Source of the DNA: an uncultured Hyphomicrobiales bacterium
Lineage (GTDB): Bacteria; Bacteroidota; Ignavibacteria; Kapaibacteriales; UBA2268
Direction of reading: 5' to 3'
Assembly (NCBI GenBank): GCA_964454975.1
Contig: CAYVVD010000007.1
Location: forward strand, 63,074-127,073
Length of the DNA: 64,000 nt
The notes beneath the pieces were generated by a model. It ran no database searches, was not told where the DNA came from, and worked only from the letters and a program-made list of their open reading frames with translations. Shown in pieces: positions 2,138-52,242 of the stretch. The position numbers and the translations under genes were made by a program. Every line of letters begins with the position of its first letter. Position 1 is the stretch's first letter.

Positions 2138-3172
2138 TTAAAGCTGGTTCAGCACCCTAACGTCATTTTCATAAAATAACCTGATATCATCTACACCGGT
2201 ACGTAGCATTGCAACCCTTTCAATTCCAAAACCAAAGGCATATCCGCTATATTCTTCCGGGTCAATCCCTCCTGACTTAATGACATTCGGGTGGACCATG
2301 CCGCAGCCAACTATTTCCAGCCAGCCTGTTTGCTTGCAAACTCTGCATCCGGAACCACCGCAGAGGAAACAAGTAATATCCATCTCAGCGCTTGGTTCGG
2401 TAAATGGAAAGAAAGACGGGCGGAAACGGAATTCAATATTCTCGCCGTACATCTTCCGTGCAAAGTTTACTACAGTGCCTTTCAGCTCTGCAAAGCTGAC
2501 ATTCCTGTCAATATACAAGCCTTCTACCTGATGGAACTCTGCAAGAGAGCGGGCATTTATTGCCTCGTTGCGGTAAACTCTTCCCGGCATTATTGCCCTG
2601 ATAGGCGGTTTCATTGAACGCATTACGCGAATCTGCACAGGAGATGTATGCGTCCTTAGAAGCAAGTCCTTTCCGGATTTCAGGAAAAAGGTGTCCTGCA
2701 TATCGCGGGCCGGATGATCAGGCGGGAAGTTCAGTGCATCAAAATTATGAAAATCATCTTCTATATCCGGGCCTTCTGCAATTGAGAAACCCATCTTTAC
2801 GAATATTTCCTTCATCTCATCCAGCACTTTCAATACGGGGTGTCGTGTACCGACAGCACCCCTTCTGCCGGGGAGTGTCAGGTCAATCTCAGGAGTTGAG
2901 TCAGCTTTTGCTGTAAGCGATTCCAGCTTTTCATTGAATTTTTCCTGGACAGTCCTGCGCAGTTCATTCAATTCCTTGCCGACAAGCGGCTTGTCCTGGG
3001 GAAGTACATCCTTCAGCCTGTTGAAAAATCCCTGGATTCTGCCCTTTTTAACAAGATATTTCAGCTTAAAATTTTCAAGAGCATCCGTGGACGCCGCCTG
3101 CGAGAGTTCATTTAACGCTTCTTTAAGTGTCTTTCGGATATCTTCAAGCATAGAACTATTTGTATTTATCAA
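2138..3172 (-). CDS. pheS: Phenylalanyl-tRNA synthetase alpha subunit (true start probably ATG at 3151)
   Basis: [47 protein letters not shown] motifs. Confidence 0.98.
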
Positions 3173-3177
3173 AACCT

Positions 3178-3185
3178 CAAATTTA
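3178..3185 (-). promoter_or_regulatory. Bacteroidota-type -7 promoter element (TAAATTTG) upstream of pheS
   Basis: Matches TAnnTTTG; 27 nt upstream of ATG 3151. Confidence 0.5.
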
Positions 3186-3260
3186 ATTAATATTAGTGAT
3201 TAAACCATTCTCTTCGGATTTGTTACATGACAGTTAAATTTACAATTCACAAAAATAATA

Positions 3261-4691
3261 TTGAATTTGACTCAGTTTAATACAAACTCAGATTTTTCAA
3301 TTTTCGCAGGTATTTCCCCGGCATTTCTTGCCAATGCAATCAGCAGGGGCCGTTGGAGGTATGCTCCACACCTGGGTATTATAGACTCCGCATTAAAAGA
3401 ACTAAGCTTCGGCCAAGATAAACGGATAATTATTAACTTGCCGCCACGGCACGGCAAATCAGAGCTTGTATCGAAATACTTTCCATTCTGGTACCTCGGC
3501 AATTTCCCGGATAAAAAAATTATTCTCGCCTCTTATGCAGCAGACTTTGCGGAATATTGGGGAGCTAATGTACGCGAGCTTATCAATGAATGGGGTATGG
3601 GGCTTTATGGCATTTCACTGTCCGGCAGGGCAACGGGGAACCTGGCTTTAGCTGATTACGGCGGAGGAATGATAAGCATGGGAGCAGGCGGCCAAATAAC
3701 AGGAAGGGGCGCCGATTTGATAATAATTGACGATCCTGTTAAAAACGATGCCGAAGCACACAGCGTAACTTATCGGGACAAGCTGTGGGACTGGTTCCGT
3801 TCAACGCTTCTTACAAGGCTCGAGCCCGGAGCTTCTCTGGTATTAATAATGACCCGCTGGCACAATGACGACCTGGCGTCAAGAATACTTAAGCATGATA
3901 TAGAGCACAGATGGGAGCAAATAAAGTTGCCTGCTGTTGCGGGAGAAAATGATATTCTCGGAAGAAAGCCGGGAGATGCGCTCTGGAAGGAGCGCTACAG
4001 CCGTGAAAGCCTTGATTCAATCAAAGAAAGCATTGGCTCGTATTGGTTTTCGGCGTTATACCAGCAGGAGCCGGAAACAGAAAATTACGGAATATTCAGA
4101 AGGGAATATTTCAAATATTTTGATTTGAAGAGAGATTTGATTGATTATGGAGGTATATATCTGCATCCGGATCAGTACAAAATGTTTTCAGTTGTTGATT
4201 TGGCGATCTCTGAAAAGGAAACAGCAGATTTTACAGTTGTGCTTACTTTTGCCTTAGACAGGTACAACAATGCGTATATCCTCGATATTATCCGGGAACG
4301 CGTGAGCGGTACAAGGCACCTTGAACTCCTAATCAGCGTTTACAAAAAGTGGAAGCCACTGAAAATCGGAATAGAGAGCGTTCAATTCCAGAAGTCGCTT
4401 GCCCGGATGGCTCTGGATAGGGGTCTGCCAGTGATAGAATTAATCCCGGACAAGGACAAAGTTTCCCGTGCATTCCCAATTGCGGCTCGAATGGAATCAG
4501 GGAAGGTATTCTTTCCCCGTAACGCACCCTGGCTGGCAAAATTCGAAGAAGAACTGCTGTTATTCCCGGGAGGGAGGCATGACGATCAGGCAGACGCGCT
4601 TGCGTATATAATGTATTTTATCGGGCAGGACTCTGGTTACAATCTTGTATCAGGCAATCCAAAAAACAGGATGCGGGTTGGTCTGACGTAA
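3261..4691 (+). CDS. terL: Phage terminase large subunit (Terminase_6 ATPase + C-terminal nuclease)
   Basis: Walker A IINLPPRHGKS, Walker B LIIIDDP, IMTRWH coupling region, nuclease VDLA and HDDQADAL; uninterrupted 476-aa ORF. Confidence 0.92.
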   Translation: MNLTQFNTNSDFSIFAGISPAFLANAISRGRWRYAPHLGIIDSALKELSFGQDKRIIINLPPRHGKSELVSKYFPFWYLGNFPDKKIILASYAADFAEYWGANVRELINEWGMGLYGISLSGRATGNLALADYGGGMISMGAGGQITGRGADLIIIDDPVKNDAEAHSVTYRDKLWDWFRSTLLTRLEPGASLVLIMTRWHNDDLASRILKHDIEHRWEQIKLPAVAGENDILGRKPGDALWKERYSRESLDSIKESIGSYWFSALYQQEPETENYGIFRREYFKYFDLKRDLIDYGGIYLHPDQYKMFSVVDLAISEKETADFTVVLTFALDRYNNAYILDIIRERVSGTRHLELLISVYKKWKPLKIGIESVQFQKSLARMALDRGLPVIELIPDKDKVSRAFPIAARMESGKVFFPRNAPWLAKFEEELLLFPGGRHDDQADALAYIMYFIGQDSGYNLVSGNPKNRMRVGLT

Positions 4692-4788: not shown

Positions 4789-5169
4789 CTACACAGCCCG
4801 TCCCCAAACGTTCCCAGCCCAGACAAGGAAAATCCCTATGGAAATGCTCGCAGCAATATAAATCAATGCCTGTGGTGCGTATCCCCGGTCTATCATGGAA
4901 AATGTCTCAAGTCCGAATGCGGAAAAAGTTGTGAACCCGCCAAGCAAGCCTGTGAAAATCAAGAGCCGTATATGATGAGGTATTGCTTCATTACCCTCAA
5001 ACATGCCACCAAGAAAACCGATTGCAAGGCAGCCAAGCAGGTTTACGGCAAGCGTTCCAAATGGGAAATGCCACTTAACAAATACGCCTTGCACCAATTC
5101 ACCAAGTAAATAACGCAAAATTGCACCTGTAAATCCGCCGAACCCAACCATCAATATATTTACAAGCAA
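4789..5169 (-). CDS. crcB: Fluoride efflux channel Fluc/CrcB
   Basis: GGFTGAILRY, FPFGTLAVNLLGC, GLLGGFTTFSAF motifs; 126 aa. Confidence 0.97.
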   Translation of the reverse strand: MLVNILMVGFGGFTGAILRYLLGELVQGVFVKWHFPFGTLAVNLLGCLAIGFLGGMFEGNEAIPHHIRLLIFTGLLGGFTTFSAFGLETFSMIDRGYAPQALIYIAASISIGIFLVWAGNVWGRAV

Positions 5170-5230
5170 TATACTTCCCGTGTTATTTCAAATTGCCTTG
5201 TTTGAGGCATTACGCTTAAAGCCATAAGTT

Positions 5231-5238
5231 CAAATATA
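5231..5238 (-). promoter_or_regulatory. Bacteroidota-type -7 element (TATATTTG) upstream of crcB
   Basis: Matches TAnnTTTG about 60 nt upstream of the crcB start. Confidence 0.45.
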
Positions 5239-5251
5239 CAGAATAAGAGGA

Positions 5252-5713
5252 TTGCAAATGCAGGTATGGGACAGGCAAAAGGGCGAAGAAGCAGCAGCTT
5301 TTGAATTATTCGCCGAATTCAGGGATAGTGGGAGCAGGAATATAGGCAAAGTGGTAGAGTCACATCCCAGGGCAAAATCATGGATAAAACGCAACAGGTG
5401 GGTGGATCGGGCAGATGCTTATGACAGATTCTTTGCTCATCACAATTGTGAAATAGATGATGACATCCTTAATGCACTGCAGAAGCGGGTACGGGAAGAA
5501 CTTTCGGGCGAAATTTCAACAAAGGATGCTGTGAATCTGCTCTCATCATTTGAAAAGCTAATAAACGAGCGTTCCAGGAGCCGTCAGGAAAAGAATCTGC
5601 AAAATGAAAATCCTGTTCCCAAAATGATAAGGGAATTTGCAGAAAAAATCTGCAAGAATAAAAAAGCTTCGGAACTTGCAGGTATGATATTAACTCTTAT
5701 TGGCAATGAATGA
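5252..5713 (+). CDS. Phage terminase small subunit-like protein (start probably ATG 5258)
   Basis: N-terminus WDRQKGE...AF..F..FRDSG.R...W....WVDRADAYD resembles the W.RQ.GE...AF..F..YRD.G...W...W..RA.AYD pattern of phage proteins found next to terL; recognised by eye. Confidence 0.55.
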   Translation: MQMQVWDRQKGEEAAAFELFAEFRDSGSRNIGKVVESHPRAKSWIKRNRWVDRADAYDRFFAHHNCEIDDDILNALQKRVREELSGEISTKDAVNLLSSFEKLINERSRSRQEKNLQNENPVPKMIREFAEKICKNKKASELAGMILTLIGNE

Positions 5714-5757: not shown

Positions 5758-6240
5758 ATGAAAATTCCTACAGAATTGAAGCACAAGCCGGTAATCGTAT
5801 CAGAAGGTTACGATAAGGTTGACGGCAGGAAGGCGCGAAAGTCAGATGCTAAGGGCTTGTCACTTGGACTGGCGCAGTGGAACGACCGCGGCAACGTGGA
5901 CATCTCCGCCAAAATATGGCGGCATACAGGTGAGAAATGGTCCCGGCAGTCGGAGGAGCTGCCCTTCCACCGTGTGATAGACCTTGCGATATTAATTTGT
6001 AAAGCTAAATATTATTTTCGCGAGCGATACAGGTTTACAGAGAAGGGTTTCCCCGATTTCCCACTGCTGGACAGGATTGGAGTTCAGGGCGGCGCAATGA
6101 ATTTTGCCCTCTGCACAGAAAACGGTCACCTGGATGAGGACCTAAAACTGTTCGACAAATGCCTCCGCAAGGACGACGAGATATTAAGCGAACGCCTCGG
6201 TGTGCTTGCGAAAGTGCTTAAGGAGTTGGAGTTGGTGTAA
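5758..6240 (+). CDS. DUF6530-like protein
   Basis: MKIPTELKHKPVIVSE...SDAKGLSLGLAQWNDRG..DISAK.WR.TGEKWSRQSEELP.HRV.DLAILIC recalled as the conserved DUF6530 signature. Confidence 0.7.
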   Translation: MKIPTELKHKPVIVSEGYDKVDGRKARKSDAKGLSLGLAQWNDRGNVDISAKIWRHTGEKWSRQSEELPFHRVIDLAILICKAKYYFRERYRFTEKGFPDFPLLDRIGVQGGAMNFALCTENGHLDEDLKLFDKCLRKDDEILSERLGVLAKVLKELELV

Positions 6241-6274: not shown

Positions 6275-7687
6275 CTACTTCTTTATCACAACAAACTCTG
6301 TGCGGCGGTTCTGACGGCGGCCTTCGTCTGTGTCGTTGCTTGCCACAGGCATTAAATCGCCATAGCCTTTAGTTTTGATGCGCTCTTTGGCAATTCCAAG
6401 GTTAATCAGTGCATTTTGAACGGCATCGGCACGCTTTTGCGAGAGCTTTTGGTTGTACCCGGTATCTCCCGTGGAATTGCGGTTGTCCGTATGGCCCTGG
6501 ATTTCTATCATCATAGCCGGGTAAGTCTCCATCAGCTTAGCCACGCTTTTAATTATGGGCAGCGACTCCCGCTTGATGCTTGCTTTGTCGAAATCAAAAT
6601 TAATGCGAAGAAGAGTAATTGTCCCCACATCAGGAATATTGCTGAAATGTGATTTTGCCGATAGCGTATCGCCATTCAGGCAGTAAATCAGCTCAAGCTC
6701 ATACCTGCCGTAATCTTCAAGCTCGAGGGGAATTTCATAGTAATTTGAAAGTCGTGTATATATATCGTCAAAAACATACTTGAATTCATCTGTTTTGTAG
6801 ATGTGATGATACGTGCCGCCTGTATTCCGGGAGAATCCCTTCATATAGGCTGTATCTATATTTGCACCGAAGTCCACACCGCAAACCATGATATTATTAT
6901 TTGCGGCAACAGCTATTACAGAGTCTTTTTTGAATGTAGAGCTATTATCAAATCCATCAGTAAAAACAACTACGGCACGTGAATCATAATCCTTAACCGG
7001 TATTAACTGCTCCAGGCCGGAGCCAACAGCATTAGCTATTGCCGTCATACCACCGTATTTGCCGAGCCCGTCAATAGCAAGCGAGTTGCTTAGTGACTCC
7101 CGCGAAGTAGTGAGCGGAGATTCAACGCCAACAACAGCATCATATTTGATCAGCGAAAAAGCATCCTGACGGCGCTTGGCTTCAATAAGGCTTTTCATAG
7201 CGCGTTGCACGGCAAAAGCCCTGTCGTCGCCCATGGAGCCGCTGTGGTCCATGGCAAATGCAATCGCGTATTTTTCTTTGTCCATGGCATTAACTTCATT
7301 AACATCAAAGAGCTTTACTATTTTTCTCTCACCGTTTACGGTGAGGAATATCCCGCACCAGAAGTCACGGTAAGGCTTTTCGGCAGCGCCTTTCAGGTAG
7401 AACATTCTTTCGTCGCTCAAATGAGCACGGATAATAACTTTGTCCGGCCTGCGTGTGTCAATTGAACTAATTTCCAGCTTTGCATCGTTTATATTATCAG
7501 GGTCGAAGTCTTTTACTTGTGTCATGAAGACGGGGTCATAACCTGTGGGAGGATTAGCGTCATCAAAAATAACAATCTCGCGCTCTTTTAAACCGGTGCA
7601 GGAAGCAAGGAGAACTGTAACAAAAATCAACAACCAGGGTTTCATTTTTTTAACTTTTGGTTGAACAAGTAATTTTTCGAAGCGCAA
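6275..7687 (-). CDS. Lipoprotein with VWA domain and C-terminal OmpA peptidoglycan-binding domain (start possibly ATG 7645)
   Basis: Lipobox LLASC; MIDAS DHSGS, FTDG; OmpA motifs IQGHTD, NQKLSQKRADAV, QNRRTEF. Confidence 0.88.
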   Translation of the reverse strand: MRFEKLLVQPKVKKMKPWLLIFVTVLLASCTGLKEREIVIFDDANPPTGYDPVFMTQVKDFDPDNINDAKLEISSIDTRRPDKVIIRAHLSDERMFYLKGAAEKPYRDFWCGIFLTVNGERKIVKLFDVNEVNAMDKEKYAIAFAMDHSGSMGDDRAFAVQRAMKSLIEAKRRQDAFSLIKYDAVVGVESPLTTSRESLSNSLAIDGLGKYGGMTAIANAVGSGLEQLIPVKDYDSRAVVVFTDGFDNSSTFKKDSVIAVAANNNIMVCGVDFGANIDTAYMKGFSRNTGGTYHHIYKTDEFKYVFDDIYTRLSNYYEIPLELEDYGRYELELIYCLNGDTLSAKSHFSNIPDVGTITLLRINFDFDKASIKRESLPIIKSVAKLMETYPAMMIEIQGHTDNRNSTGDTGYNQKLSQKRADAVQNALINLGIAKERIKTKGYGDLMPVASNDTDEGRRQNRRTEFVVIKK

Positions 7688-7798: not shown

Positions 7799-8368
7799 AT
7801 GAAAAAAGGGTGGGCGGAACATAGCGACCAAGAGTTATTTGACCTGATAGTTGCAGGAAGCAAGAATTCTGAGAACGCCTTCACGGAGCTTTATAACAGG
7901 TATTCGCCCCGTGTTTATGCCTATTGCAGGCGGTTCCTTGGCAACGAAGAGGAAGCGATGGACGTATTCCAGGAGACTTTCATAAAGTTCCACCAGTGTG
8001 CGGACAGGGACAGGGAAATGACTAATGTCCCCGCATTTCTTCTGAAAATAGCACGGAACTTGTGCGTAAACCTGAGAAGGCGCGAAAAGACAATGGTCAC
8101 ATTCGAGGATTATATGATAAATGACCATGTTGTCCAGAGTGATAAGGACGAGCTTCTCGGATTGATAAAATCCGCTCTTGAACTACTGCCTGATGATTAC
8201 AGGGAAGTATTCATCCTGAGGGAATACGACGGGCTTTCGTACCAGGAAATTACGGATGTAACCGGGATAACCCTTGCAACAGTTAAAGTAAGAATCTTCA
8301 GGGCAAAACAGAAAATCAGGGAAATCCTGGCACCGTACCTGAAGGAGCTATCAAAATATGGAGATTAA
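7799..8368 (+). CDS. ECF RNA polymerase sigma factor
   Basis: AFTELYNRY, DVFQETF, region 4 LPDDYREVFILREYDGLSYQEI...TVKVRIFRAK. Confidence 0.95.
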   Translation: MKKGWAEHSDQELFDLIVAGSKNSENAFTELYNRYSPRVYAYCRRFLGNEEEAMDVFQETFIKFHQCADRDREMTNVPAFLLKIARNLCVNLRRREKTMVTFEDYMINDHVVQSDKDELLGLIKSALELLPDDYREVFILREYDGLSYQEITDVTGITLATVKVRIFRAKQKIREILAPYLKELSKYGD

Positions 8369-19392: not shown

Positions 19393-19395
19393 CAG

Positions 19396-19469
19396 GGCGA
19401 GAGACGAGATTTGAACTCGCGACCACCAGAGCCACAATCTGGCGCTCTACCGACTGAGCTACTCCCGCC
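19396..19469 (-). tRNA. trnH: tRNA-His (GTG) with genomic G-1; CCA not encoded
   Basis: GGCGGGAGTAGCTCAGTCGGTAGAGCGCCAGATTGTGGCTCTGGTGGTCGCGAGTTCAAATCTCGTCTCTCGCC: full cloverleaf, anticodon GTG, discriminator C. Confidence 0.97.
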
Positions 19470-37941: not shown

Positions 37942-38877
37942 ATGCCTTTTGCAGTAGGCGGAAATGCCAGAATACGAACAAACATATCGGCTGAAAATGC
38001 CTACAATGCGCTTGATGTATCCAACCGTGATATATCGCTCAGGCAACTAAGGCTTTCGACGGGCAAGAGAATAAACAATGCCGCGGATGATGTTGCCGGT
38101 TATATTACTTCCAGGGCGCTCCAGGCAAGAAACGGTGCATTAAAAGCAGCTCTCAGAGCTGTCGGCGATGCCCAGAATTCATCCTATATCATCATGGACT
38201 CTCTTGATAATATAGGTACACTAATAAATGAAATTAAGGAAGCCACAGCAACCGCTGCATCGGGTGCAATGGGAACAGATGAGATGATTGCTCTTGCAAA
38301 AGCAGCCTACAGGATGGTAGAACAGATACAGACTGTAGTTGATTCAACGGTATTCGGCGGAAGGCAGCTTCTTGACGGTACTTTTTCAGCAGACTTTGTT
38401 ATTGCAACTGATGCGACAAACAACCTGCTGACATTGTCACTCGATATGACAACCGGAAATGCCGACTTTAATGTTGAAAACGGTGACTTTAATATTAATT
38501 CTTTGAATATTTCAAGTTTTGGTGGTATAACAGGACTCGACTTGAGGGAGTTCAACAATGTAAGCTCTACAAATCTGGGTATCTTTGCTGATACTATGAT
38601 GACAGTTACCCTCACGAGCCTTGCCGATGCTATACAGAACGTAAACAAAGTTGCCTCTTACGTTGGCGGTATTGTAAACAGGCTTACTTCGCAGGAAGAC
38701 CTTCTTAAGAGCCAGGTTACAAACTATAATTCGGCAATTTCGAGAATCGAAGATGCCGACGTTGCGATGGAACAGCTTCAGCTTGTTAAATCGCAGTTCC
38801 TGCAGAACGCTTCGCTGGTTTCGCTGGCACAGGCCAATCAGAACCCGCAGGCATTCTTGCAGCTGATACAGGGATAA
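37942..38877 (+). CDS. fliC: Flagellin (copy 1)
   Basis: RIRTN..A.NA, LRLSTGKRINNAADD.AG, FGGRQLLDG, SRIEDADVA.E, SL..AQANQ.P; GGAGG ribosome-binding site. Confidence 0.9.
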   Translation: MPFAVGGNARIRTNISAENAYNALDVSNRDISLRQLRLSTGKRINNAADDVAGYITSRALQARNGALKAALRAVGDAQNSSYIIMDSLDNIGTLINEIKEATATAASGAMGTDEMIALAKAAYRMVEQIQTVVDSTVFGGRQLLDGTFSADFVIATDATNNLLTLSLDMTTGNADFNVENGDFNINSLNISSFGGITGLDLREFNNVSSTNLGIFADTMMTVTLTSLADAIQNVNKVASYVGGIVNRLTSQEDLLKSQVTNYNSAISRIEDADVAMEQLQLVKSQFLQNASLVSLAQANQNPQAFLQLIQG

Positions 38878-38906: not shown

Positions 38907-39842
38907 ATGCCATTTGCAACAGGCGGATCATCAAGGATTAGGACTAATATACCGGCAGAAAATGCCTATAATTCTCTCGAAATATCATCAAGAGATATTT
39001 CTCTCAGGCAGTTAAGGCTTTCGACCGGCAAAAGAATAAACAGCGCTGCCGATGATGTGGCAGGATACATCACTGCCCGGGCGCTCCAGGCAAGGAACGG
39101 GGCTCTCAAAGCTGCGCTCAAAACAATAGGGGATGCCCAGAATGTGTCCAACATTTCACAGGATGCGCTCGCCAACATCAACGACCTTATTAACCTAATT
39201 AGAGAATCTACTGCCACCGCTGCATCCGGCGCAATGGGAACAGATGAAAAAGTAGCTCTTTCTAAAGCAGCCTACAGGATGGCTCAGCAGATACAAACGG
39301 TTGTTGATTCGACAGTTTTTGGCGGACAACAGCTTATGGATGGTAATTTTAGCGAGAATTTCTATATAGCAACAAATGCCCAGAACAGCCTTATTACACT
39401 AAGCATTGACCTAACTACCGACAATGCAGATTTTAATGTTGAAAGCAATAATTTTGATGTGCATTCCTTAGCTTCTTCAAATTTTGCCGGTGTTACAGGA
39501 TTGGATTTAACTGAGTTGAATGATATTAACGCAACTGACTTGGGTATATTTGCCAGTTCTGTTATAGGTATAACGCTTACCAGCCTTGCAGAAGCGCTTA
39601 ACAATGTTAATAAAGTAGCCTCATTCCTCGGTGGAATTTCAAACAGACTGGATTCGCAGGAAGACATTCTGAAGAGCCAAATAACAAATTATAACGCTGC
39701 AATCTCGAGGATTGAAGATGCCGATGTTGCGATTGAGCAGCTCAGCCTGATTAAATCTCAGTTCCTGCAACAGGCCTCACTTGTTTCGCTATCCCAGGCG
39801 AACCAGAATCCAAATGCATTCTTGCAGTTAATAAGCCAATAA
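38907..39842 (+). CDS. fliC: Flagellin (copy 2)
   Basis: Same terminal motifs; ungapped 311-aa alignment to copy 1, 227/311 identical by hand count. Confidence 0.9.
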   Translation: MPFATGGSSRIRTNIPAENAYNSLEISSRDISLRQLRLSTGKRINSAADDVAGYITARALQARNGALKAALKTIGDAQNVSNISQDALANINDLINLIRESTATAASGAMGTDEKVALSKAAYRMAQQIQTVVDSTVFGGQQLMDGNFSENFYIATNAQNSLITLSIDLTTDNADFNVESNNFDVHSLASSNFAGVTGLDLTELNDINATDLGIFASSVIGITLTSLAEALNNVNKVASFLGGISNRLDSQEDILKSQITNYNAAISRIEDADVAIEQLSLIKSQFLQQASLVSLSQANQNPNAFLQLISQ

Positions 39843-40813: not shown

Positions 40814-41593
40814 TTGCATTTACTCTTTTTTGCACATCAGATGATTAACAACAAAAAAACAGTCGTAGTGTTGCCGGCATATAACGCCGAGAAAACACTC
40901 GAAAAAACATACAGGGAAATACCTTTTGATATCGTTGATGAGGTTGTCCTTGTTGATGACGCGAGCAACGATAAAACTATAGAGCTTGCCAAAAAGCTCG
41001 GAATCAAGCACGCACTCAGGCACGAAGAGAATAAAGGTTACGGTGGCAACCAGAAAACATGCTATAACAAGGCTCTCGAACTCGGCGCGGACATAGTTAT
41101 AATGCTTCACCCGGATTACCAGTACACACCCCAGCTTGTCCCGTCAATGGCATACCTGATTGCAAATGATGTTTACCCTGTAGTACTTGGGAGCAGGATT
41201 CTTGGGAAAGGAGCGCTTACCGGTGGGATGCCAAAGTACAAGTACATCGCAAACCGCTTTCTTACTTTGTTCCAGAATGTTCTGATGAGCCAGAAGCTAT
41301 CTGAATATCATACAGGTTACAGGGCATTTTCTGCTGAAGTGCTAAAAAAAATTAACTACGAAACAAATTCAGATGATTTTGTTTTTGATAACCAGATGCT
41401 TGCCCAGATTTTCTGGGAAGGATTTGAAATTGCTGAAATAACCTGCCCGACTAAGTATTTCAAAGAGGCTTCTTCGATTAATTTCAAGAGGAGCGTCAAA
41501 TACGGCTTCGGAGTTTTAAATACTTCAATTCAGTACCGAATGAGTAAATGGGGGATTGCCAAACCTGATATATTTAGTTCAATAAAAAGCTGA
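40814..41593 (+). CDS. Glycosyltransferase family 2 (true start probably ATG 40841; TATATTTG -7 element at 40809-40816)
   Basis: VLPAYNAE, VDDAS.D, NKGYGG, MLHPDYQY, GSR, FVFDNQML. Confidence 0.93.
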   Translation: MHLLFFAHQMINNKKTVVVLPAYNAEKTLEKTYREIPFDIVDEVVLVDDASNDKTIELAKKLGIKHALRHEENKGYGGNQKTCYNKALELGADIVIMLHPDYQYTPQLVPSMAYLIANDVYPVVLGSRILGKGALTGGMPKYKYIANRFLTLFQNVLMSQKLSEYHTGYRAFSAEVLKKINYETNSDDFVFDNQMLAQIFWEGFEIAEITCPTKYFKEASSINFKRSVKYGFGVLNTSIQYRMSKWGIAKPDIFSSIKS

Positions 41594-45172: not shown

Positions 45173-47479
45173 ATGTCGAAAGGTGGCGGAGCCGGAAAGG
45201 TTTACTTCGTACTTTACCTCGCGGTAGTTCTCGAACTGCTGATTATCATTGTAGAGAGGGATGAAGCCGAAGAGAGCCTTCACAAAAAGCAAAAAGAAAC
45301 TATGCGCATAGTCGAGAGCATCCTGTCGCAGTTGCAGGCAGGCTCAGGCTCGGAAGGTATTAACACACGTCCGCAGGACGAAATTACTTTGCCCCCGCCG
45401 GGTATCAATATGAAGGAAGTATTTGGCACTGAAATTAAATCCTTCAGAAAGTATATTGTGGAGGTTGGTGTTACTGATGTTTCAGCTTCTATTAAGAAAA
45501 AGGAAGATGAATCAGAAAAGGAATACCTCCAAAGGATGCAGACGCTTGTCAAACTTGCCAACGTTGCTGAACTTGAGTACCAGGTATTTTACAATGAAAG
45601 CCAGGACCCATCGGAACCACCTACATTCTTATCACCGGACGAGATTGATGATTTGAAAATTGATTTTGTTGAGATTGAACCCGGAGATATTATTGAAAAT
45701 GACATGGGGGATGTCTGGGAATTCCTTGGTGTTAGGAAACTTGTTCTTGATGATGAAGCCACATTTAACAAGCTTGACCTTAATAAAGTATCGCTCGAGG
45801 CTATCGAGCCTGTCTATCCTTCTGAAAAGGTGATTCACAAAGGGCCGGGCTTTTCACCAAAAGATATCAACCCCGACAGTACTTTTTACTATTCTCATGC
45901 AGAAAGCCTTAAAAATACAAAAATAGCTGATGCAGGTATGCAGAAGCGTTCCTTTATTGTCTATTTCCAGCCTCCTGACAAAGCCGGCTGGTATAAGCTG
46001 CGATTCTCTTCCAGGACAAATAAAATCCTCGGCTTAAGAAAAGAAGCAAGCCAGGAAGAATACATTGATGATGAAACAACTGTTAACATTGGTACAGTTC
46101 AATTGACTGTAAAATCACTTGAGCAGGTACGCAAAAGCCTGGAATCTACACTTGAGAAATTTGACCTGCCTGCGCAAGTTGTAATGCTTGAAGAAGACGG
46201 GCTTGAAAAATTTAACCGGCAAATGTCAGAGGCCCGCCAAAGAATTCTTAACGAGGACGAGGCTGTTGACCTGATGAATAAATTCAGCCTTTACAGCTAC
46301 ATTGCCAAGCTTCTGACACCGGGCATGTCCAGGTATTTCGACCAGAATAAAGGCAAAATCGAATTTAATATCCGTGTAACCAAACCAACACCACAGACTG
46401 TTGACCCGATTATTGCTGTTGCAAATGAAATCCACCGCTTCGATGCAATTCAGCCGCAGTTCAGGATTTCGATTGCTCCATTCAGGGAAGGGCAGAACCA
46501 GTTGCAAGGCTTGGTTTATAACGCATCAGAAGGAACTACCAGCGAACCTATTGCACGTGTTGAATTTATAGAAGCCGGCGAATCCGTTGATGTAGAAGGT
46601 AAGGGGAAAGACTTCTTCGCGAGGATTGACCAGATACTGAGCGCTGCGCAGAGCGGCGGGCCGAGAAAATACCTCGTGAAACTTGTGCACTCCCTCCAGG
46701 GTAAAGTAGCCGATACGACAGCTGAACTAACAATCTACCCGGCTATGGTCGAAGATGAAGTTACAAAGCTTGCGAACTTGTTTGAAGCAAGAGCTGCATA
46801 TGGTAACTATTTCATATTCAACTATATACCGCCCTCTGGCAACAAGATTTTGCCTGAGCAATTCTGCTATAAATTTGTGACTGACGGCGATCCACAACCA
46901 AGAGGATGCGAACGTGGTTATTCTGCGGACAGGGATGATAATCTTTTCTTCGGCGTAAACTCCAAGAAAGCATCTCTTGAGATTGTCTGGAAAGACCCGA
47001 TTAGCGACCAGGAAGTTCCAATCTTCCCGAAGAAAGAAGTAAGCATTCGCCAGAATGAACCGAAAATACTTGTCAATCAGGCAAGTGAAAACATTGGCGG
47101 TTCCCAGGACAGGATTAAAGTCAGAATTGTTAATATCAAGATAAAGCCGCCGGACATAGGTGTTCAGGATGATAGTAAAACTGCAAAAATTGATGTTGAA
47201 GTTGACGTAGAAAAAGTACGTGTTTCCAAAAACTACAAATTGGCAGGTAAACCTTCGTTTACTATAAAAGATGAAGTGATGACAATCGAATTTGACCTTG
47301 TTGGCGAACCCGACGAAGAGGGCTGGGCTAAAGGTTCTGTTGATGTAAGTATTGTAGCTTATGCCACGAACCCCGTGAACGGAGTCAGATCAACTATTCC
47401 TGCGAGGAAAACTTTACCGATTTCAATCAGGAAAAAATTCGACTTGTTCCAGAACGATTTTATGAATCCGTACCGTTAA
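45173..47479 (+). CDS. Hypothetical single-pass membrane protein with large periplasmic beta-rich region (GldM/PorM-like topology)
   Basis: MSKGGGAGKVYFVLYLAVVLELLIIIVERDE: N-terminal TM with an embedded Glu, then a helical segment and Ig-like strands; no recognised family. Confidence 0.75.
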   Translation: MSKGGGAGKVYFVLYLAVVLELLIIIVERDEAEESLHKKQKETMRIVESILSQLQAGSGSEGINTRPQDEITLPPPGINMKEVFGTEIKSFRKYIVEVGVTDVSASIKKKEDESEKEYLQRMQTLVKLANVAELEYQVFYNESQDPSEPPTFLSPDEIDDLKIDFVEIEPGDIIENDMGDVWEFLGVRKLVLDDEATFNKLDLNKVSLEAIEPVYPSEKVIHKGPGFSPKDINPDSTFYYSHAESLKNTKIADAGMQKRSFIVYFQPPDKAGWYKLRFSSRTNKILGLRKEASQEEYIDDETTVNIGTVQLTVKSLEQVRKSLESTLEKFDLPAQVVMLEEDGLEKFNRQMSEARQRILNEDEAVDLMNKFSLYSYIAKLLTPGMSRYFDQNKGKIEFNIRVTKPTPQTVDPIIAVANEIHRFDAIQPQFRISIAPFREGQNQLQGLVYNASEGTTSEPIARVEFIEAGESVDVEGKGKDFFARIDQILSAAQSGGPRKYLVKLVHSLQGKVADTTAELTIYPAMVEDEVTKLANLFEARAAYGNYFIFNYIPPSGNKILPEQFCYKFVTDGDPQPRGCERGYSADRDDNLFFGVNSKKASLEIVWKDPISDQEVPIFPKKEVSIRQNEPKILVNQASENIGGSQDRIKVRIVNIKIKPPDIGVQDDSKTAKIDVEVDVEKVRVSKNYKLAGKPSFTIKDEVMTIEFDLVGEPDEEGWAKGSVDVSIVAYATNPVNGVRSTIPARKTLPISIRKKFDLFQNDFMNPYR

Positions 47480-47518
47480 TTCGAAAGTGAAATTGAATAA
47501 TAAATCCGGGAAATAAGG

Positions 47519-49270
47519 ATGAAGAAACCAGCAATATTTATGATGATTTTGGCGCTTTCATTAGCGGCTGTTCCTGCAATATCGCAGAATAACATGCCGA
47601 CTAACGATGAGATTGCTAAAGTTCTTCAAAGTTTTAAGAACTACAGGTTTGGCGCCATAAGCATGTACGAAGTGATTGACGTAACAGAGCTTAAAGAATG
47701 GCGCAAAATAAGGTTCAGTAAATCTGATGCTGTAAGCCAGGAAGAGTCTGCAGAATGTATTAAGCAGCTGGAAACTGGTGTTGACGAATTGATTAGAAAT
47801 GGCGCTGAAGAAGAAAAAACAATGAATGATATCATTGAAAATATCATTACTGAAGGATATGCTTTACCCGAAAGAGATGTTCTGGAGTGTGCATACCAAT
47901 ACTACGTAGAACAATTCCTTGGACCAAAGGAAGAATTAGTTTTAAGAGCTTATATGGTAACTTCGAGGCCCCCAAAAATAGGGACTATTCCTGACACAAT
48001 AGTTGGTCTCCTTTTCTCTGAAAAACCATTTGAAGAATCATCCGGCGAATTGAAGCCAAACCTCGAAACTGTTCCGTCTGAAGACGTTATGTCAGTTGAT
48101 TTCCTAAAAGAAGAGAAACTCGATGAAACAAAGTACGGTTACAGGACACTATATGACCTTCTGTACGCTTACTTCATCCAGGGCAACGTACAGGACAAAT
48201 CGATGGAAGCCAAAGGCATTTCCAGTGATATCCGCTTCTTTGCAGAAAAACCCGGCCAGACACTACCTCTTATCAACGGCGAAATCATCAGCTCGATGGA
48301 TGTTCAGAAGTTCATGAGGATAAGCGAAGGCCAGCCGATAAATTACCATGAAAATACACAGGAACTCCTTATAAGCCCCGACCAGGTGAAATGGACAAAA
48401 TTCTCACCTGTTTATGTCAGGGATGCAACGGGTAAGCTAAGGAAAGATTCGCTCGGCAACCTGCTCATTGACTACCGTTACCCGGCCAATGCATTCCTGC
48501 CTGATTTCGGGCTTGAAATGAAATATGGAATCGATGAGCTTTATTATCCCTCTTTCTGGAGCGAAAGGATGACAATCAGTGCTCTTTGGGATAATGTAAA
48601 ATTTGGTGTAATCCTGCCTACAAACGGCTGGTCGTCTTTCTCAACGGACATCTTTGACCAGCAGCGCATGCTGACACATGCCGGTATCGGAATTGCAGGC
48701 CAACTCGACTTCCCGTTTGTACTAATTCCCGAAAGTGGTATTTTCCACCTTGGTTTCGGCTACGTATTTGGCAATGCTGAAATAAGCGAATACAAAAACA
48801 GAAACCTGGACCCGGATATCTTTGTCACAAACCAGTTCGACAATGATTATTTAATCAGGGCACACGGGCAGTTGCATTATACATTCGGCATTTCTGTTGA
48901 TGATGATTACTACCTTCGTTTTGGCATGGGAGGAACAATTTACACAATGGAACGCTGGTATAATATGCTGGAAACCACTGAAGAAGAAAACAAAGTTGTA
49001 TTCAAGGAACTTGATTCCGAGACTGTTGGGGGAGTTTCAGGAAAAATTGAGTTTATGGCAACAAACACCACGACTCCTTATGGAGGAAGCATACAATACT
49101 TTGATGAATCGCTTGGTATAAATGCCTGGCTCCAGGTGCCGATTATTGAAGATGCACTTGTGCTAAGGCTTGACGCTAATGGATATGTCACAGCATTTAA
49201 AGAAAACTTGCGCGATTGGGAAAGGTCGAGTGTGATTATTCCAATGGCAAGGTTTATTGTGATTTTCTGA
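47519..49270 (+). CDS. Hypothetical outer-membrane beta-barrel protein
   Basis: Signal peptide; alternating-strand C-terminal half; ends MARFIVIF (terminal Phe). Confidence 0.7.
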   Translation: MKKPAIFMMILALSLAAVPAISQNNMPTNDEIAKVLQSFKNYRFGAISMYEVIDVTELKEWRKIRFSKSDAVSQEESAECIKQLETGVDELIRNGAEEEKTMNDIIENIITEGYALPERDVLECAYQYYVEQFLGPKEELVLRAYMVTSRPPKIGTIPDTIVGLLFSEKPFEESSGELKPNLETVPSEDVMSVDFLKEEKLDETKYGYRTLYDLLYAYFIQGNVQDKSMEAKGISSDIRFFAEKPGQTLPLINGEIISSMDVQKFMRISEGQPINYHENTQELLISPDQVKWTKFSPVYVRDATGKLRKDSLGNLLIDYRYPANAFLPDFGLEMKYGIDELYYPSFWSERMTISALWDNVKFGVILPTNGWSSFSTDIFDQQRMLTHAGIGIAGQLDFPFVLIPESGIFHLGFGYVFGNAEISEYKNRNLDPDIFVTNQFDNDYLIRAHGQLHYTFGISVDDDYYLRFGMGGTIYTMERWYNMLETTEEENKVVFKELDSETVGGVSGKIEFMATNTTTPYGGSIQYFDESLGINAWLQVPIIEDALVLRLDANGYVTAFKENLRDWERSSVIIPMARFIVIF

Positions 49271-49318
49271 TTAAATTGTGTACGATTAGGTTGAAATAAT
49301 AATAAAGAAGTTGAGCGT

Positions 49319-50773
49319 ATGAAAAAGACACTCTCGATATTGTTCCTTGCAATTGCGCTGGTATTTGCTCTCGGAATAGAAAAAGTATCAGCCCAAAAAA
49401 TGAGCATAATTGACTCTTTGAACACTATTGATCCGGAATTAAGAAAGATATTCCCCCGCTGGAAAGTATGCGAACCCGATCTCCAATTCCAGATTTACCA
49501 GGCATTTGTATTGCTTGGTTACAACAAAAACAATCTTAATATGCAAAGCGTTGAGGTTCTTTCTGCGCCTCGCAGCTTCAGGGACAGGTATTATGATATC
49601 CTGTTGATTACTTGCGGCGAAGAATCAATGAATGCGAGGATGATAGATGACCAGATAAAAACACTATCTGATTATCTTTCCGGCAAGAAGATTTATGACA
49701 GGCGTAAATTTGGCGACAGGTCTGCCCAGGGCGAAAGGACTTACTGCTTTGTTGACATTCCTCCGGAAATACCCGTTAATAATGACCAGGCTATTGCAAT
49801 ACAGGATTACCTCGAACCTACAGATGTTACACAGGCATTTTCTATTTCTTTGTTCGAGCAATCACTTAAGCTTGGCGAAAGCGGATTCTGGGTAAAGAAC
49901 ATCTACGGCAACGACCAGGTTGGCTATCCATTCTGGGCAGCAGGGGAAGCAAAAGTAATCCTTAAAAGGCCGCTTTACACAAATCTTAATTCTAATACAA
50001 GAGAAAGTTTCCCTTATCTGATTAATGCTTATCTGGGTGGCGGTTACAGGATAACTTCCGGTATCAACGAGGATGGAGGTATATTAAGCTGGCTTCCGGA
50101 AAGAAAGTTGAATAACGGGCCTGGTGGTAAGCTTATTGCCGGACTGGATGTAAATATGCCATTCCATCCGCAGTCAGGTGTCCATTTCAATATCGAAATT
50201 CCTTTCCAAAGTATTGATCAGGACAAGATTGAAGTAAGTAAATACGCAATGATGCCCGCACCTTTCTCTGCAGGAATTCCAATTAATGATCCCAGGTATG
50301 AGACAGACTCAGTTGAGGCAGTTGCTCCTATACTGGGAACTACAGGCCAGTTTACATTTTTCTACCACTGGTGGATTAATAGGGAAGACAACCCCGAAAA
50401 CTACTTCAGGTTTGACCTTGGTGTAAGCTATGCTGAAGTTCAGAACTATGCTGTTATATTCCATGACGACACTACAGAAGGTGTTTTTCATCATTACCTT
50501 GATAAAAAAGGTATTCCCGGCCTTAGGTTCTATCATCCTAAAGAATTCGGTGACTGGGTATTTGCTAAAATGGAATATCGCAACCAGGCTGCATTCCCGT
50601 TTGGGGTAAGCGTCCAGTATTCGAACCAATTGCTCCTTGCAAGAGCTTACATGCCGCTGATTGGCAACTGGTTCCTTCTCGAAGGAAAGTATGCACAGCC
50701 TCTCAGGAGTGCCAGACCTTATGAAACCGAGCATTTCTTCGTGATTTCTCCTATACTGCGAATTACGATATAA
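49319..50773 (+). CDS. Hypothetical outer-membrane beta-barrel protein (paralogue of 47519)
   Basis: Signal peptide; shares YP.FW and P.G.S.QY....L...A...P.I...L tail pattern; ends SPILRITI. Confidence 0.7.
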   Translation: MKKTLSILFLAIALVFALGIEKVSAQKMSIIDSLNTIDPELRKIFPRWKVCEPDLQFQIYQAFVLLGYNKNNLNMQSVEVLSAPRSFRDRYYDILLITCGEESMNARMIDDQIKTLSDYLSGKKIYDRRKFGDRSAQGERTYCFVDIPPEIPVNNDQAIAIQDYLEPTDVTQAFSISLFEQSLKLGESGFWVKNIYGNDQVGYPFWAAGEAKVILKRPLYTNLNSNTRESFPYLINAYLGGGYRITSGINEDGGILSWLPERKLNNGPGGKLIAGLDVNMPFHPQSGVHFNIEIPFQSIDQDKIEVSKYAMMPAPFSAGIPINDPRYETDSVEAVAPILGTTGQFTFFYHWWINREDNPENYFRFDLGVSYAEVQNYAVIFHDDTTEGVFHHYLDKKGIPGLRFYHPKEFGDWVFAKMEYRNQAAFPFGVSVQYSNQLLLARAYMPLIGNWFLLEGKYAQPLRSARPYETEHFFVISPILRITI

Positions 50774-50883: not shown

Positions 50884-52242
50884 TTGGGGATGAAATCCGC
50901 AGCTATAAGAGCTATTTTATTGCTTTCAGCTTATCTGTTGCTTGTTCCATACACAGCACTATCTGTTCCAGAATCACAAAAAAATCTCGATTCGCTTCAA
51001 AAAGCACGCAGGCTGATGCAGCAGGCTGTTGTTAAAAGCGACAAAGAGGAAATTAAGATTACAATCAGGAACGTCGATATTTCCAGGTATCCCGAGGTGA
51101 AAATTATTGTAGAGGCATTTAACATCTATGGCGGGCCTCTTGATACTCTTACCCCTGAAAGATTGACAGTGCTTGAGAACAATGAAGAAAGAAAAGTATT
51201 ATCTGTTGAAAAAATATCTATTAATGAGCGTGTCCCGGTTGATTTTGTCTTTGTGATTGACCAGACCGGCTCAATGGATGCGTACATCAACGCTGTGCGT
51301 AAAAAAATCACCGGTTTTACGGAATTTCTTCTTAAGCGTGGGATTGACTATAATATCGGCCTTGTTTTATACTCTGACCGGATTGAAAAGGCTTATGAAC
51401 CTACAGACAATGTCAGGGATTTCCTCAGGTGGTTGTCAATTGTAAATGCATTTGGCGGGGGGGATGCCAAAGAAAACCTGCTCGAAGCGCTTGAAAAAGC
51501 CAGCACGCTTAATTTCAGGCCATCTGCAAACAAGGTGGTTGTTATTATAACTGATGCACCTTACCACCAGCAGGGAGAAGACGGTAAAGGCAAAACCAAG
51601 CATACAACAGAATCAATAATCAAGTTGATGAATGAAAATGATATGCGGGTATTCTCGATTGTGCCGCCACGTTTGGAGCAGTACAAGGATATCTCATATA
51701 ATACCCGCGGAAACGTATATGATATTGATTACCCGTTTTCGGCAATCCTTGATAATTTCTCCAATCAGCTTACAAACCTGTTCGCCCTTAAATACAGGAC
51801 CGACCTTCCGGCAATCCCTGACTCGATAAACATTGCACTTGTTGACCAGCAGAAAAAAAAGATAATACTCACCCGTAAAACTATTCCGATTGTTGAACTT
51901 GGCCGCAAGCTGATTATTGAAAATATGCTCTATGAAACAGCAAGCGCCCGGCTGCCGGATGAAGTTGAAGAGCTCGAAGTACTGACACAATTCATGAACA
52001 ACAAGCCCAATGTTGTAATTCTTGTGGAAGGCCACACTGATGCTGTGGGCAGCTATGCTGTTAACGACAGGCTTTCGCTTGCAAGGGCAGAAAGCGTAAA
52101 GAATTACCTCATTAATAAAGGGATTTCCCCACACAGGATAAAAACAAGAGGATACGGAGAGAGAAAACCAATTGCTTCAAATAACACAGCACTTGGCAGG
52201 AGCCTTAACCGGCGGACTGAAATTGTAATCGTATCAAAATAA
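50884..52242 (+). CDS. VWA domain + OmpA-family peptidoglycan-binding protein
   Basis: MIDAS DQTGS, ITDAP; OmpA motifs VEGHTD, NDRLSLARAESV, LNRRTEI. Confidence 0.9.
   Translation: MGMKSAAIRAILLLSAYLLLVPYTALSVPESQKNLDSLQKARRLMQQAVVKSDKEEIKITIRNVDISRYPEVKIIVEAFNIYGGPLDTLTPERLTVLENNEERKVLSVEKISINERVPVDFVFVIDQTGSMDAYINAVRKKITGFTEFLLKRGIDYNIGLVLYSDRIEKAYEPTDNVRDFLRWLSIVNAFGGGDAKENLLEALEKASTLNFRPSANKVVVIITDAPYHQQGEDGKGKTKHTTESIIKLMNENDMRVFSIVPPRLEQYKDISYNTRGNVYDIDYPFSAILDNFSNQLTNLFALKYRTDLPAIPDSINIALVDQQKKKIILTRKTIPIVELGRKLIIENMLYETASARLPDEVEELEVLTQFMNNKPNVVILVEGHTDAVGSYAVNDRLSLARAESVKNYLINKGISPHRIKTRGYGERKPIASNNTALGRSLNRRTEIVIVSK

Follow-up and report, generated by a model that had tools for sequence, protein, structure and literature searches.

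A solitary large terminase gene kept in Kapabacteria and Ignavibacteria: possible part of a dispersed, gene-transfer-agent-like packaging system

A gene for a phage-type large terminase subunit (terL, protein TerL) stands among cellular genes at positions 3261–4691 of a 64-kb stretch of DNA (contig CAYVVD010000007.1, positions 63,074 to 127,073), which is referred to as the window in the following. The gene has been inherited vertically under purifying selection and is not a recent remnant, and in some relatives TerLs of the same family close a compact cluster of Mu-type head genes. We interpret the window terL as the detached terminase of a domesticated, genomically dispersed head-packaging system akin to gene transfer agents (GTAs), an interpretation that in our estimation stands about an even chance of being right. 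The dispersed GTA-like option gains circumstantial support from the cluster of head, portal and lysis genes with which TerLs of this family are associated in some relatives. A search of the literature gave no description of a solitary terminase or a gene transfer agent in these lineages.

According to this model, an ancestor of the Kapabacteria/Ignavibacteria would have acquired the terL of a Mu-like phage, which has since been passed on vertically under purifying selection. The window gene is orthologous to the terminase that closes the head cluster in some relatives, and would have become detached from the cluster in most genomes including the present one. Capsid, scaffold, portal and lysis proteins would then be supplied by a cluster elsewhere in the genome, with TerL and the small terminase subunit (TerS) encoded separately; TerS and TerL would cut DNA and translocate it, by ATP hydrolysis and in a headful manner, into the cluster-encoded procapsids, and a CHAP-like peptidase together with membrane proteins would lyse the cell and release particles whose cargo would be host DNA, as in gene transfer agents. 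We infer that this genome holds a head cluster outside the window, that particles are formed and that host DNA is what they carry.

The terminase and its inheritance

The gene and its motifs are as follows, all on the plus strand.

3261–4691: terL, large terminase subunit of 476 amino acids (aa), ATPase and nuclease domains intact, solitary, TTG start
3441–3464: Walker A (P-loop) PPRHGKSE, aa 61–68, at least 98% conserved in 120 clade members
3717–3737: Walker B LIIIDDP, aa 153–159, aligns with the Walker B region of T7 gp19
3852–3872: TRWHNDD motif, aa 198–204, with T198, R199, W200 and D204 at least 98% conserved
4197–4595: RNase H-like nuclease core with acidic residues D313, E372, D442 and D445; Terminase_6C spans aa 313–451

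The first-pass annotation, made from the letters alone, had described a full-length TerL with intact Walker A, Walker B and nuclease acidic motifs, a description borne out by Pfam, PHROG and NCBIfam profiles, an AlphaFold2 model and conservation across the 120 relatives. The protein matches Terminase_6N (7e-12) and Terminase_6C (3e-9) of Pfam, PHROG_38 (terminase large subunit; 3e-105) and NCBIfam TIGR01630 (2e-17); a second TTG at 3267, two codons on, is an alternative start. Every expected TerL motif is retained, and each, including a YQQxP motif at aa 267–271 and the four acidic residues D313, E372, D442 and D445, is at least 98% conserved across the 120 relatives; seven of the eight Walker A residues are invariant in 48 relatives and E68 is nearly so. 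The TRWHNDD motif is presumably the ATPase coupling motif, being assigned by position, with the label taken from the general TerL literature. An AlphaFold2 model built from 48 homologs (pLDDT 87.9, pTM 0.79) retrieved with Foldseek the terminase of PhiV-1 (E 7.6e-19) and gp17 of T4 (4e-13) and also matches the full-length D6E, HK97 and Sf6 terminases, and its nuclease fold agrees with the G20c and RB49 terminase nuclease domains. Judged by profiles and model, 3261–4691 is thus a two-domain large terminase of the Terminase_6N/6C type with complete catalytic motifs, for which ATP-driven DNA translocation and cleavage on a portal is the predicted activity. An exact look-up returned no identical protein on record.

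The best relatives, 45–54% identical to the window TerL, come from Kapabacteria, Ignavibacteria and unclassified Bacteroidota/FCB metagenome-assembled genomes, several of them on Mb-scale chromosomes. When one genome for each GTDB species was scanned, two signature motifs of this clade turned up in at least 591 species-level genomes, so that the presence of terL in sister genomes, which the first-pass annotation had wanted checked, is established. All six solitary-TerL neighbourhoods with precomputed Pfam annotation are housekeeping regions, with neighbours that include secG/queA, fmt, ftsA-ftsZ, pyruvate kinase, glycosyltransferases and lnt/coaD; in six further TerL loci that were scanned the neighbours are cellular, except for two phage-family open reading frames (ORFs) in locus L275. 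No head-cluster gene is found near TerL in 76 of 81 clade loci, 45 of which have at least 3 kb of sequence on either side. The best TerLs from phages and IMG/VR reach no more than 40% identity and belong to classical TerS-TerL-portal-head modules, as do, in the same classical order, those of Firmicutes prophages (about 30% identical).

In a neighbour-joining tree the chromosomal TerLs form one clade (192 of 200 bootstraps) apart from the sampled phage and prophage TerLs, and the window gene falls within this Kapabacteria/Ignavibacteria clade rather than being nested among phages. When TerLs attached to the head cluster (see below) are included, attached and solitary sequences together are monophyletic in 72 of 100 bootstraps. 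They interleave, neither subset being monophyletic in any of the 100 replicates, and the nearest attached-solitary pairs are 52–64% identical; by sequence, the two sets are the same family. Two side observations concern the records searched. The TerLs of L263, L265 and L271, titled Methanolobus, Sphaerochaeta and Candidatus Aeolococcus, lie outside the clade near IMG/VR phages and could represent bin contamination or true phages of other hosts. Many 'MAG TPA_asm ... binchicken' records (L001, L007, L009, L012 and numerous others) are titled 'uncultured Hyphomicrobiales', their genes are Kapabacteria/Ignavibacteria-like, and the titles look unreliable.

That an intact terL among housekeeping genes is being maintained and not decaying, as had been suspected from its intactness, is corroborated by ratios of nonsynonymous to synonymous substitution rates (dN/dS) of 0.05–0.12, not near 1. 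Between L010 and L015 the TerL dN/dS is 0.09–0.12 at a dS of 0.77–0.86, which equals that of 17 collinear flanking genes; between L012 and L016 it is 0.08–0.10, and among L007, L008 and L022 it is 0.05. In a close species pair, TerL lies inside 21 kb of perfectly collinear genes. The proposed comparison with a species marker came out in the same sense: across seven genomes the identity matrices of pheS and TerL correlate with a Pearson/Mantel r of 0.89 (p=10/5040), and one and the same genome is nearest to the window in pheS (72%) and in TerL (53%).

A GT2 glycosyltransferase carrying a TPR domain, which we call GT2-TPR, neighbours TerL in 25 of 85 loci belonging to eight deep TerL groups. It lies divergently upstream of TerL in 15 loci (spacer 10–164 bp), within 3 kb in nine and about 5 kb downstream in one; four of the loci are listed here, the gene being found at 21 further loci.

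L009, 914–1882: GT2-TPR
L012, 8925–9953: GT2-TPR
L208, 8805–9869: GT2-TPR
L257, 6900–7958: GT2-TPR

GT2-TPR and TerL diverge in step, with r=0.93 when all pairs are taken and a Mantel r of 0.73 (p about 0.001) between groups, and the position of the gene beside TerL may reflect an ancestral location or a functional link. GT2-TPR is absent from the window.

In the window terL is transcribed divergently from pheS across 88 bp and convergently with crcB, as described in the first-pass annotation and confirmed by the coordinates. Conservation of this pheS-terL-crcB order did not hold in any relative: none of 22 clade TerL loci and none of 80 pheS loci shows it. This is uninformative, because the best pheS identity is only 72% and the other genes on the pheS side of the window are not adjacent to pheS in those genomes either. 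Taken together, terL has descended vertically under purifying selection.

The head cluster and the small terminase

Mu-type head genes lie immediately upstream of TerL in five of the 81 clade loci (L235, L244, L264, L240 and L250). The search of related genomes for portal and capsid genes that the first-pass annotation had called for was thus productive, with no recognised tail gene among the finds. A query with the capsid protein on metagenome contigs gave 33 loci, and a compact array was seen in all 22 of those of at least 9 kb. The cluster is a conserved array of about 5–6 kb whose first gene is family F2 and whose last is the portal or TerL, in the following order.

F2: about 300 aa, scaffold or protease-like, hhalign probability 100 to the scaffold of a Mu-like module
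F0: about 315 aa, Mu gpT-type major capsid protein, 43% identical to the capsid of the Mu-like Burkholderia phage phiE255
F3: 114 aa, after F0, no assignment
F5: 145 aa, Mu Gp36-like, hhalign probability 98
F8: about 100 aa, after F5, no assignment
F1: about 200 aa, CHAP-like peptidase candidate with invariant Cys and His and a weak match to a phage CHAP-domain protein
F7: 115 aa, after F1, no assignment
F6: 145 aa, hydrophobic at both ends
F4: about 350 aa, Mu gp29-type portal, hhalign probability 100 to Portal_Mu

Some cluster loci carry a variable insert between F7 and F6. Beyond the cluster genes and TerL, no family is common to more than three of 27 cluster loci, and in these 27 loci, not all flanks of which carry family annotation, neither the cluster nor its surroundings yielded a recognisable tail, integrase, transposase or replication gene. 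The flanks resemble each other only between close relatives (L313/L314, L296/L299, L264/L305), and the two flanking ORFs of L250 that were checked, about 2 kb upstream and about 4.5 kb downstream of the cluster, are cellular. The cluster genes are under purifying selection (omega 0.07–0.44). A comparison of the CHAP-like family with PDB sequences gave no match, and tblastn of the searched TerL loci revealed no Mu F homologue.

TerL is attached to the cluster in eight of the 27 loci, most cluster loci having no adjacent TerL; in about ten of them 3–7 kb of sequence is available past the portal and holds no TerL. Where present, TerL comes after the portal in L235 and L244, the two reading frames overlapping, and likewise in L264, L305 and L322, where a short gap separates them; in L240 and L250 it comes after F7, and in L302 it lies divergently upstream of the cluster. 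In L322 (13759–15159) the cluster-attached TerL is apparently interrupted (ORFs of 203 and 263 aa), which may point to a pseudogene or to an error in sequencing. In IMG/VR the cluster capsid gene occurs only on L323, L324 and L325, fragments of 5–7 kb that may represent a chromosomal head cluster mis-called viral.

The window itself appears to contribute a second packaging component. Its terL had been described as standing alone: the absence of portal, capsid, tail, integrase and lysis genes from the 64 kb was upheld by the ORF scans and, for head, portal and lysis genes, by tblastn, and what had been overlooked is a TerS-like ORF just past crcB.

5252–5713, plus strand: TerS-like ORF, 153 aa, phrog_6299 (1e-7)

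The probable start of this ORF is the ATG at 5258, preceded by the Shine-Dalgarno-like AAGAGGA, and with a distance of 0.56 kb downstream of terL the gene order is TerL-TerS, the reverse of the usual TerS-TerL. An exhaustive search of 1.84 billion representative proteins yielded only 43 weak relatives, which have an N-terminal motif in common (W6, E12, F20, R29, W50, R53); all 30 aligned relatives match phrog_6299. A word-index search returned the window protein alone, and pattern scans of genomes returned no relative. The modelled structure is all-helical, with three short N-terminal helices followed by long ones, and found no fold match in the PDB; matches of the ORF to PADLOC defence models were at chance level only. 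The family lies immediately upstream of TerL in the phage modules L018, L211 and L212, and takes the same position in L233, as part of a two-gene unit of overlapping TerS and TerL between xseA and dnaN, and in L275, where two further phage-family ORFs precede TerS-TerL. The two closest relatives are lone genes among cellular genes (L209 and L210), one of them adjoining pyruvate kinase. In the likely ortholog P0137, the neighbouring extracytoplasmic function (ECF) sigma factor is 71% identical to that of the window (7799–8368), and the TerS-like proteins are 26–32% identical where the adjacent sigma factor is 71% identical. The TerS-like gene, too, is thus inherited with the host, though it evolves very fast.

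Weighing the alternatives

Several points speak against a dispersed packaging system. The 64-kb window, to which our reading is confined, holds no head-cluster gene, and the co-occurrence of a solitary TerL with a TerL-less cluster in one genome is a prediction of the model. The assignment of lysis functions (CHAP, membrane proteins) derives from one weak tblastn match and the invariant Cys and His; a shared upstream motif or k-mer between the promoters of solitary TerLs and of clusters was sought, with nothing convincing emerging. The cluster genes of L235 and L244 are 72–86% identical and their downstream flanks differ, which means that the cluster may move in some lineages. Beyond the gp36-like protein, no tail, receptor-binding or head-tail joining set was recognised in the cluster, which leaves the system without a route for delivering DNA. 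Just three of about 81 TerLs have a detectable TerS-like gene nearby, and this gene evolves very fast; the trees are neighbour-joining trees in which the deep branching within the clade is not resolved.

The most serious competitor, to which we assign a low probability, is that TerL, with or without the TerS-like protein, has been repurposed as a stand-alone ATPase-nuclease acting in DNA processing, repair or the degradation of foreign DNA without a capsid, the cluster being an ancestral leftover that has mostly been lost. Such a function would fit the 76 of 81 loci that have no head gene nearby, the conservation of both catalytic centres and the separate intergenic region of terL, which as a rule also serves a divergent cellular gene; moreover, the cluster lacks a portal in L240 and L250. 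However, conserved TerL-less clusters are common in metagenomes, and a capsid-portal set of this kind makes little sense unless TerL comes from elsewhere. In addition, the cluster genes are under purifying selection, TerL matches no known defence family in PADLOC, and we know of no precedent for a capsid-independent TerL.

Somewhat less probable still, in our view, is a host terminase that exploits the procapsids of infecting or resident Mu-like phages, so that phage yield falls, host DNA is packaged, or both. Much as with the small terminases encoded by satellites, the outcome would be packaging interference or enhanced transduction. This idea has a basis in a second phage-like element found in the same bacteria.

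L211, 1404–13743: second phage-like element
L212, 218–13738: second phage-like element
L018, 35–6135: second phage-like element

One strand of this element encodes a methyltransferase, a PAPS-reductase-like protein, ParB, TerS, TerL, Portal_Mu, Mu_F and tail_S, and the other strand a capsid protein of the lambda E type with a decoration protein. Its right boundary is cellular in L211 and L212, and no Pfam family matches the ORF that borders the L211 module on the left; we saw no tail genes in it. The TerLs of such Mu-like head modules are sisters of the solitary ones (35–41% identical) and reside in the same bacteria, at least four assemblies (HW421, CAZBNQ, CAIWET and the chromosome OY762428.1) contain both the element and a solitary TerL, and the TerS families belong to the same PHROG. 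Yet the clade's own capsid-portal cluster would be a more direct partner, and the capsid of the resident modules is lambda E-like and gave no hhalign match to the cluster capsid. A solitary portal clade was also sought, using the portal of an Ignavibacteria phage; the top matches that were examined, two of two, lie in Mu-like modules with their own TerL and represent a different element, not a partner.

We consider it improbable that terL belongs to a mobile tail-less satellite comparable to a capsid-forming phage-inducible chromosomal island, or to an unusual prophage, of which the TerL-bearing end survives decay. L235 and L244 have the cluster in common and not the downstream flanks, clusters reach the contig ends in L235, L244 and L264, L275 retains two more phage-family ORFs upstream of TerS-TerL, and capsid-forming satellites likewise lack tails. 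Against this stand the absence of a conserved integrase, replication or regulatory gene with the cluster (no other family in more than three of 27 loci) and the behaviour of the solitary TerLs, which share dS and collinear flanks with their neighbours and co-diverge with pheS and GT2-TPR; just three short IMG/VR contigs carry the capsid gene. A recently decayed, functionless prophage remnant left intact by chance would account for the phage origin of terL, lone phage genes being generally remnants, but is most unlikely and was rejected given the selection (omega 0.05–0.12), the conservation of all motifs in 120 homologs, the distribution over at least 591 species with congruence to pheS, a base composition that is not atypical (GC 0.44) and the lack of any flanking phage gene except the TerS-like ORF.

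The proposal of a domesticated packaging motor, put forward in the first-pass annotation, is therefore supported, none of the signs of a recent remnant that were looked for having been found. We would go one step further only tentatively, at a level of confidence below that for our interpretation of the window gene: Kapabacteria and Ignavibacteria might carry an undescribed, ancient Mu-derived viriform, in which a tail-less or tail-borrowing capsid-portal-lysis cluster and terminase subunits scattered elsewhere in the chromosome package and release host DNA.

Surroundings in the window, known systems and significance

The genes and regions next to terL in the window are given below.

2138–3172, minus strand: pheS, cellular neighbour and species marker, outside the system
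3173–3260: divergent pheS/terL intergenic region of 88 bp, which must contain both promoters
4789–5169, minus strand: crcB, fluoride channel (Pfam CRCB, 9.5e-28), between terL and the TerS-like ORF, outside the system
5758–6240, plus strand: DUF6530 protein of 160 aa, no known function
7799–8368, plus strand: ECF sigma factor, synteny anchor for the TerS-like gene, outside the system

All sizeable ORFs of the window were compared with Pfam, and those negative in Pfam with PHROGs or NCBIfam. TerL and the TerS-like ORF aside, the scan returned cellular genes only, among them flagellins, TrkAH, type IX secretion cargo, a glycogen debranching enzyme and GatB, and no capsid, portal, tail, integrase or lysis gene; in tblastn with the Mu-type capsid, scaffold, portal and lysis proteins, TerL was the sole match in the window. 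Base composition around terL is unremarkable (GC 0.44), and the single tRNA of the window (His, 19395–19468) lies 15 kb from the gene. Scans of the terL locus with promoter and terminator consensus sequences gave nothing above chance, including one weak sigma-70-like match at 3227–3256. The spacer between terL and the convergent crcB measures 97 bp; an Rfam scan near the locus at the gathering threshold identified no fluoride riboswitch upstream of crcB (5170–5251) and no other RNA.

DUF6530 is 65–76% identical across Ignavibacteria, Atribacterota, Spirochaetota and Bacillota and thus unusually conserved for its size. As a partner of TerL or TerS it was rejected in view of this identity across phyla and since it never adjoins either gene. 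Further features of the window deserve mention in their own right. Two tandem flagellin genes (37942–38877 and 38907–39842) lie a few kb from a GT2 glycosyltransferase (40814–41593), and the organism also has many type IX secretion cargo proteins. Three consecutive large ORFs of 768, 583 and 484 aa (45173–50773) have no match in Pfam, NCBIfam or PHROG and are followed by a VWA-OmpA protein (50884–52242), a second VWA-OmpA protein being encoded beside the terminase locus (6275–7687).

Among known systems, the GTA of Rhodobacter capsulatus (RcGTA) and other multi-locus GTAs resemble the present case in having phage-derived packaging and head genes in the host chromosome, vertical inheritance and purifying selection, as well as split loci, associated lysis genes and no integrase or replication genes found. 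In RcGTA, TerL is part of a 15-kb head-tail cluster with tail genes, whereas here TerL is usually solitary and the cluster, of about 5–6 kb, has no recognised tail gene; the lineage is the Bacteroidota-related Kapabacteria/Ignavibacteria and the head is of the Mu type. Vertical inheritance, purifying selection and the lack of an integrase or replication module are as expected of a GTA, and a tail or delivery apparatus is what was not found in or beside the cluster, although tail genes may be encoded in another part of the genome. We do not file the system as a gene transfer agent because no tail was recognised and because it is known from genes alone, although in its working it would come closest to a multi-locus GTA.

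The head and packaging module of Mu-like phages comprises the gp27/gp28 terminase, the gp29 portal, the gpI/Z scaffold-protease, the gpT capsid protein and gp36. With these phages the cluster has in common a Portal_Mu portal, a gp36-like protein, a phiE255-like capsid (43%) and a Terminase_6N/6C TerL. It differs in gene order, which is rearranged with the capsid genes first and the portal and then TerL last, and in a portal that is about 100 aa shorter and aligns to aa 40–403 of the 493-aa Mu-type portal in hhalign; there is no Mu F homologue and no conserved tail or transposase family, and TerL is in most cases a chromosomal gene away from the cluster. Capsid-forming phage-inducible chromosomal islands share a tail-less chromosomal set of capsid, portal and terminase, and helper tails could possibly be borrowed. 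Those islands are mobile and carry integrase, regulation and replication modules, whereas the cluster is accompanied by no conserved gene of that kind and the solitary TerLs keep synteny with host genes and diverge along with them. Ordinary prophage terminases (Firmicutes L023–L026, IMG/VR L031 and L032, Ignavibacteria contig L018) have the same family, fold and catalytic motifs, but are flanked by TerS, portal and head-morphogenesis genes and are 25–41% identical to the window TerL.

To our knowledge, only a handful of independent GTA lineages are known, none of them in this part of the bacterial tree. If the viriform reading is true, the system would be a new GTA family in Bacteroidota-related lineages and the first in which head genes and packaging motor are as a rule encoded apart, and such a lineage would widen the view of how often bacteria domesticate phage heads. 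If the cluster is truly tail-less, how packaged DNA leaves and enters cells becomes the question. There is also a practical side: TerL is widely used as a marker for viral contigs and prophages, and a chromosomal TerL in at least 591 species will give false viral calls, of which L323–L325 may be examples. A terminase kept for so long away from capsid genes means that a lone phage hallmark gene is not necessarily junk.

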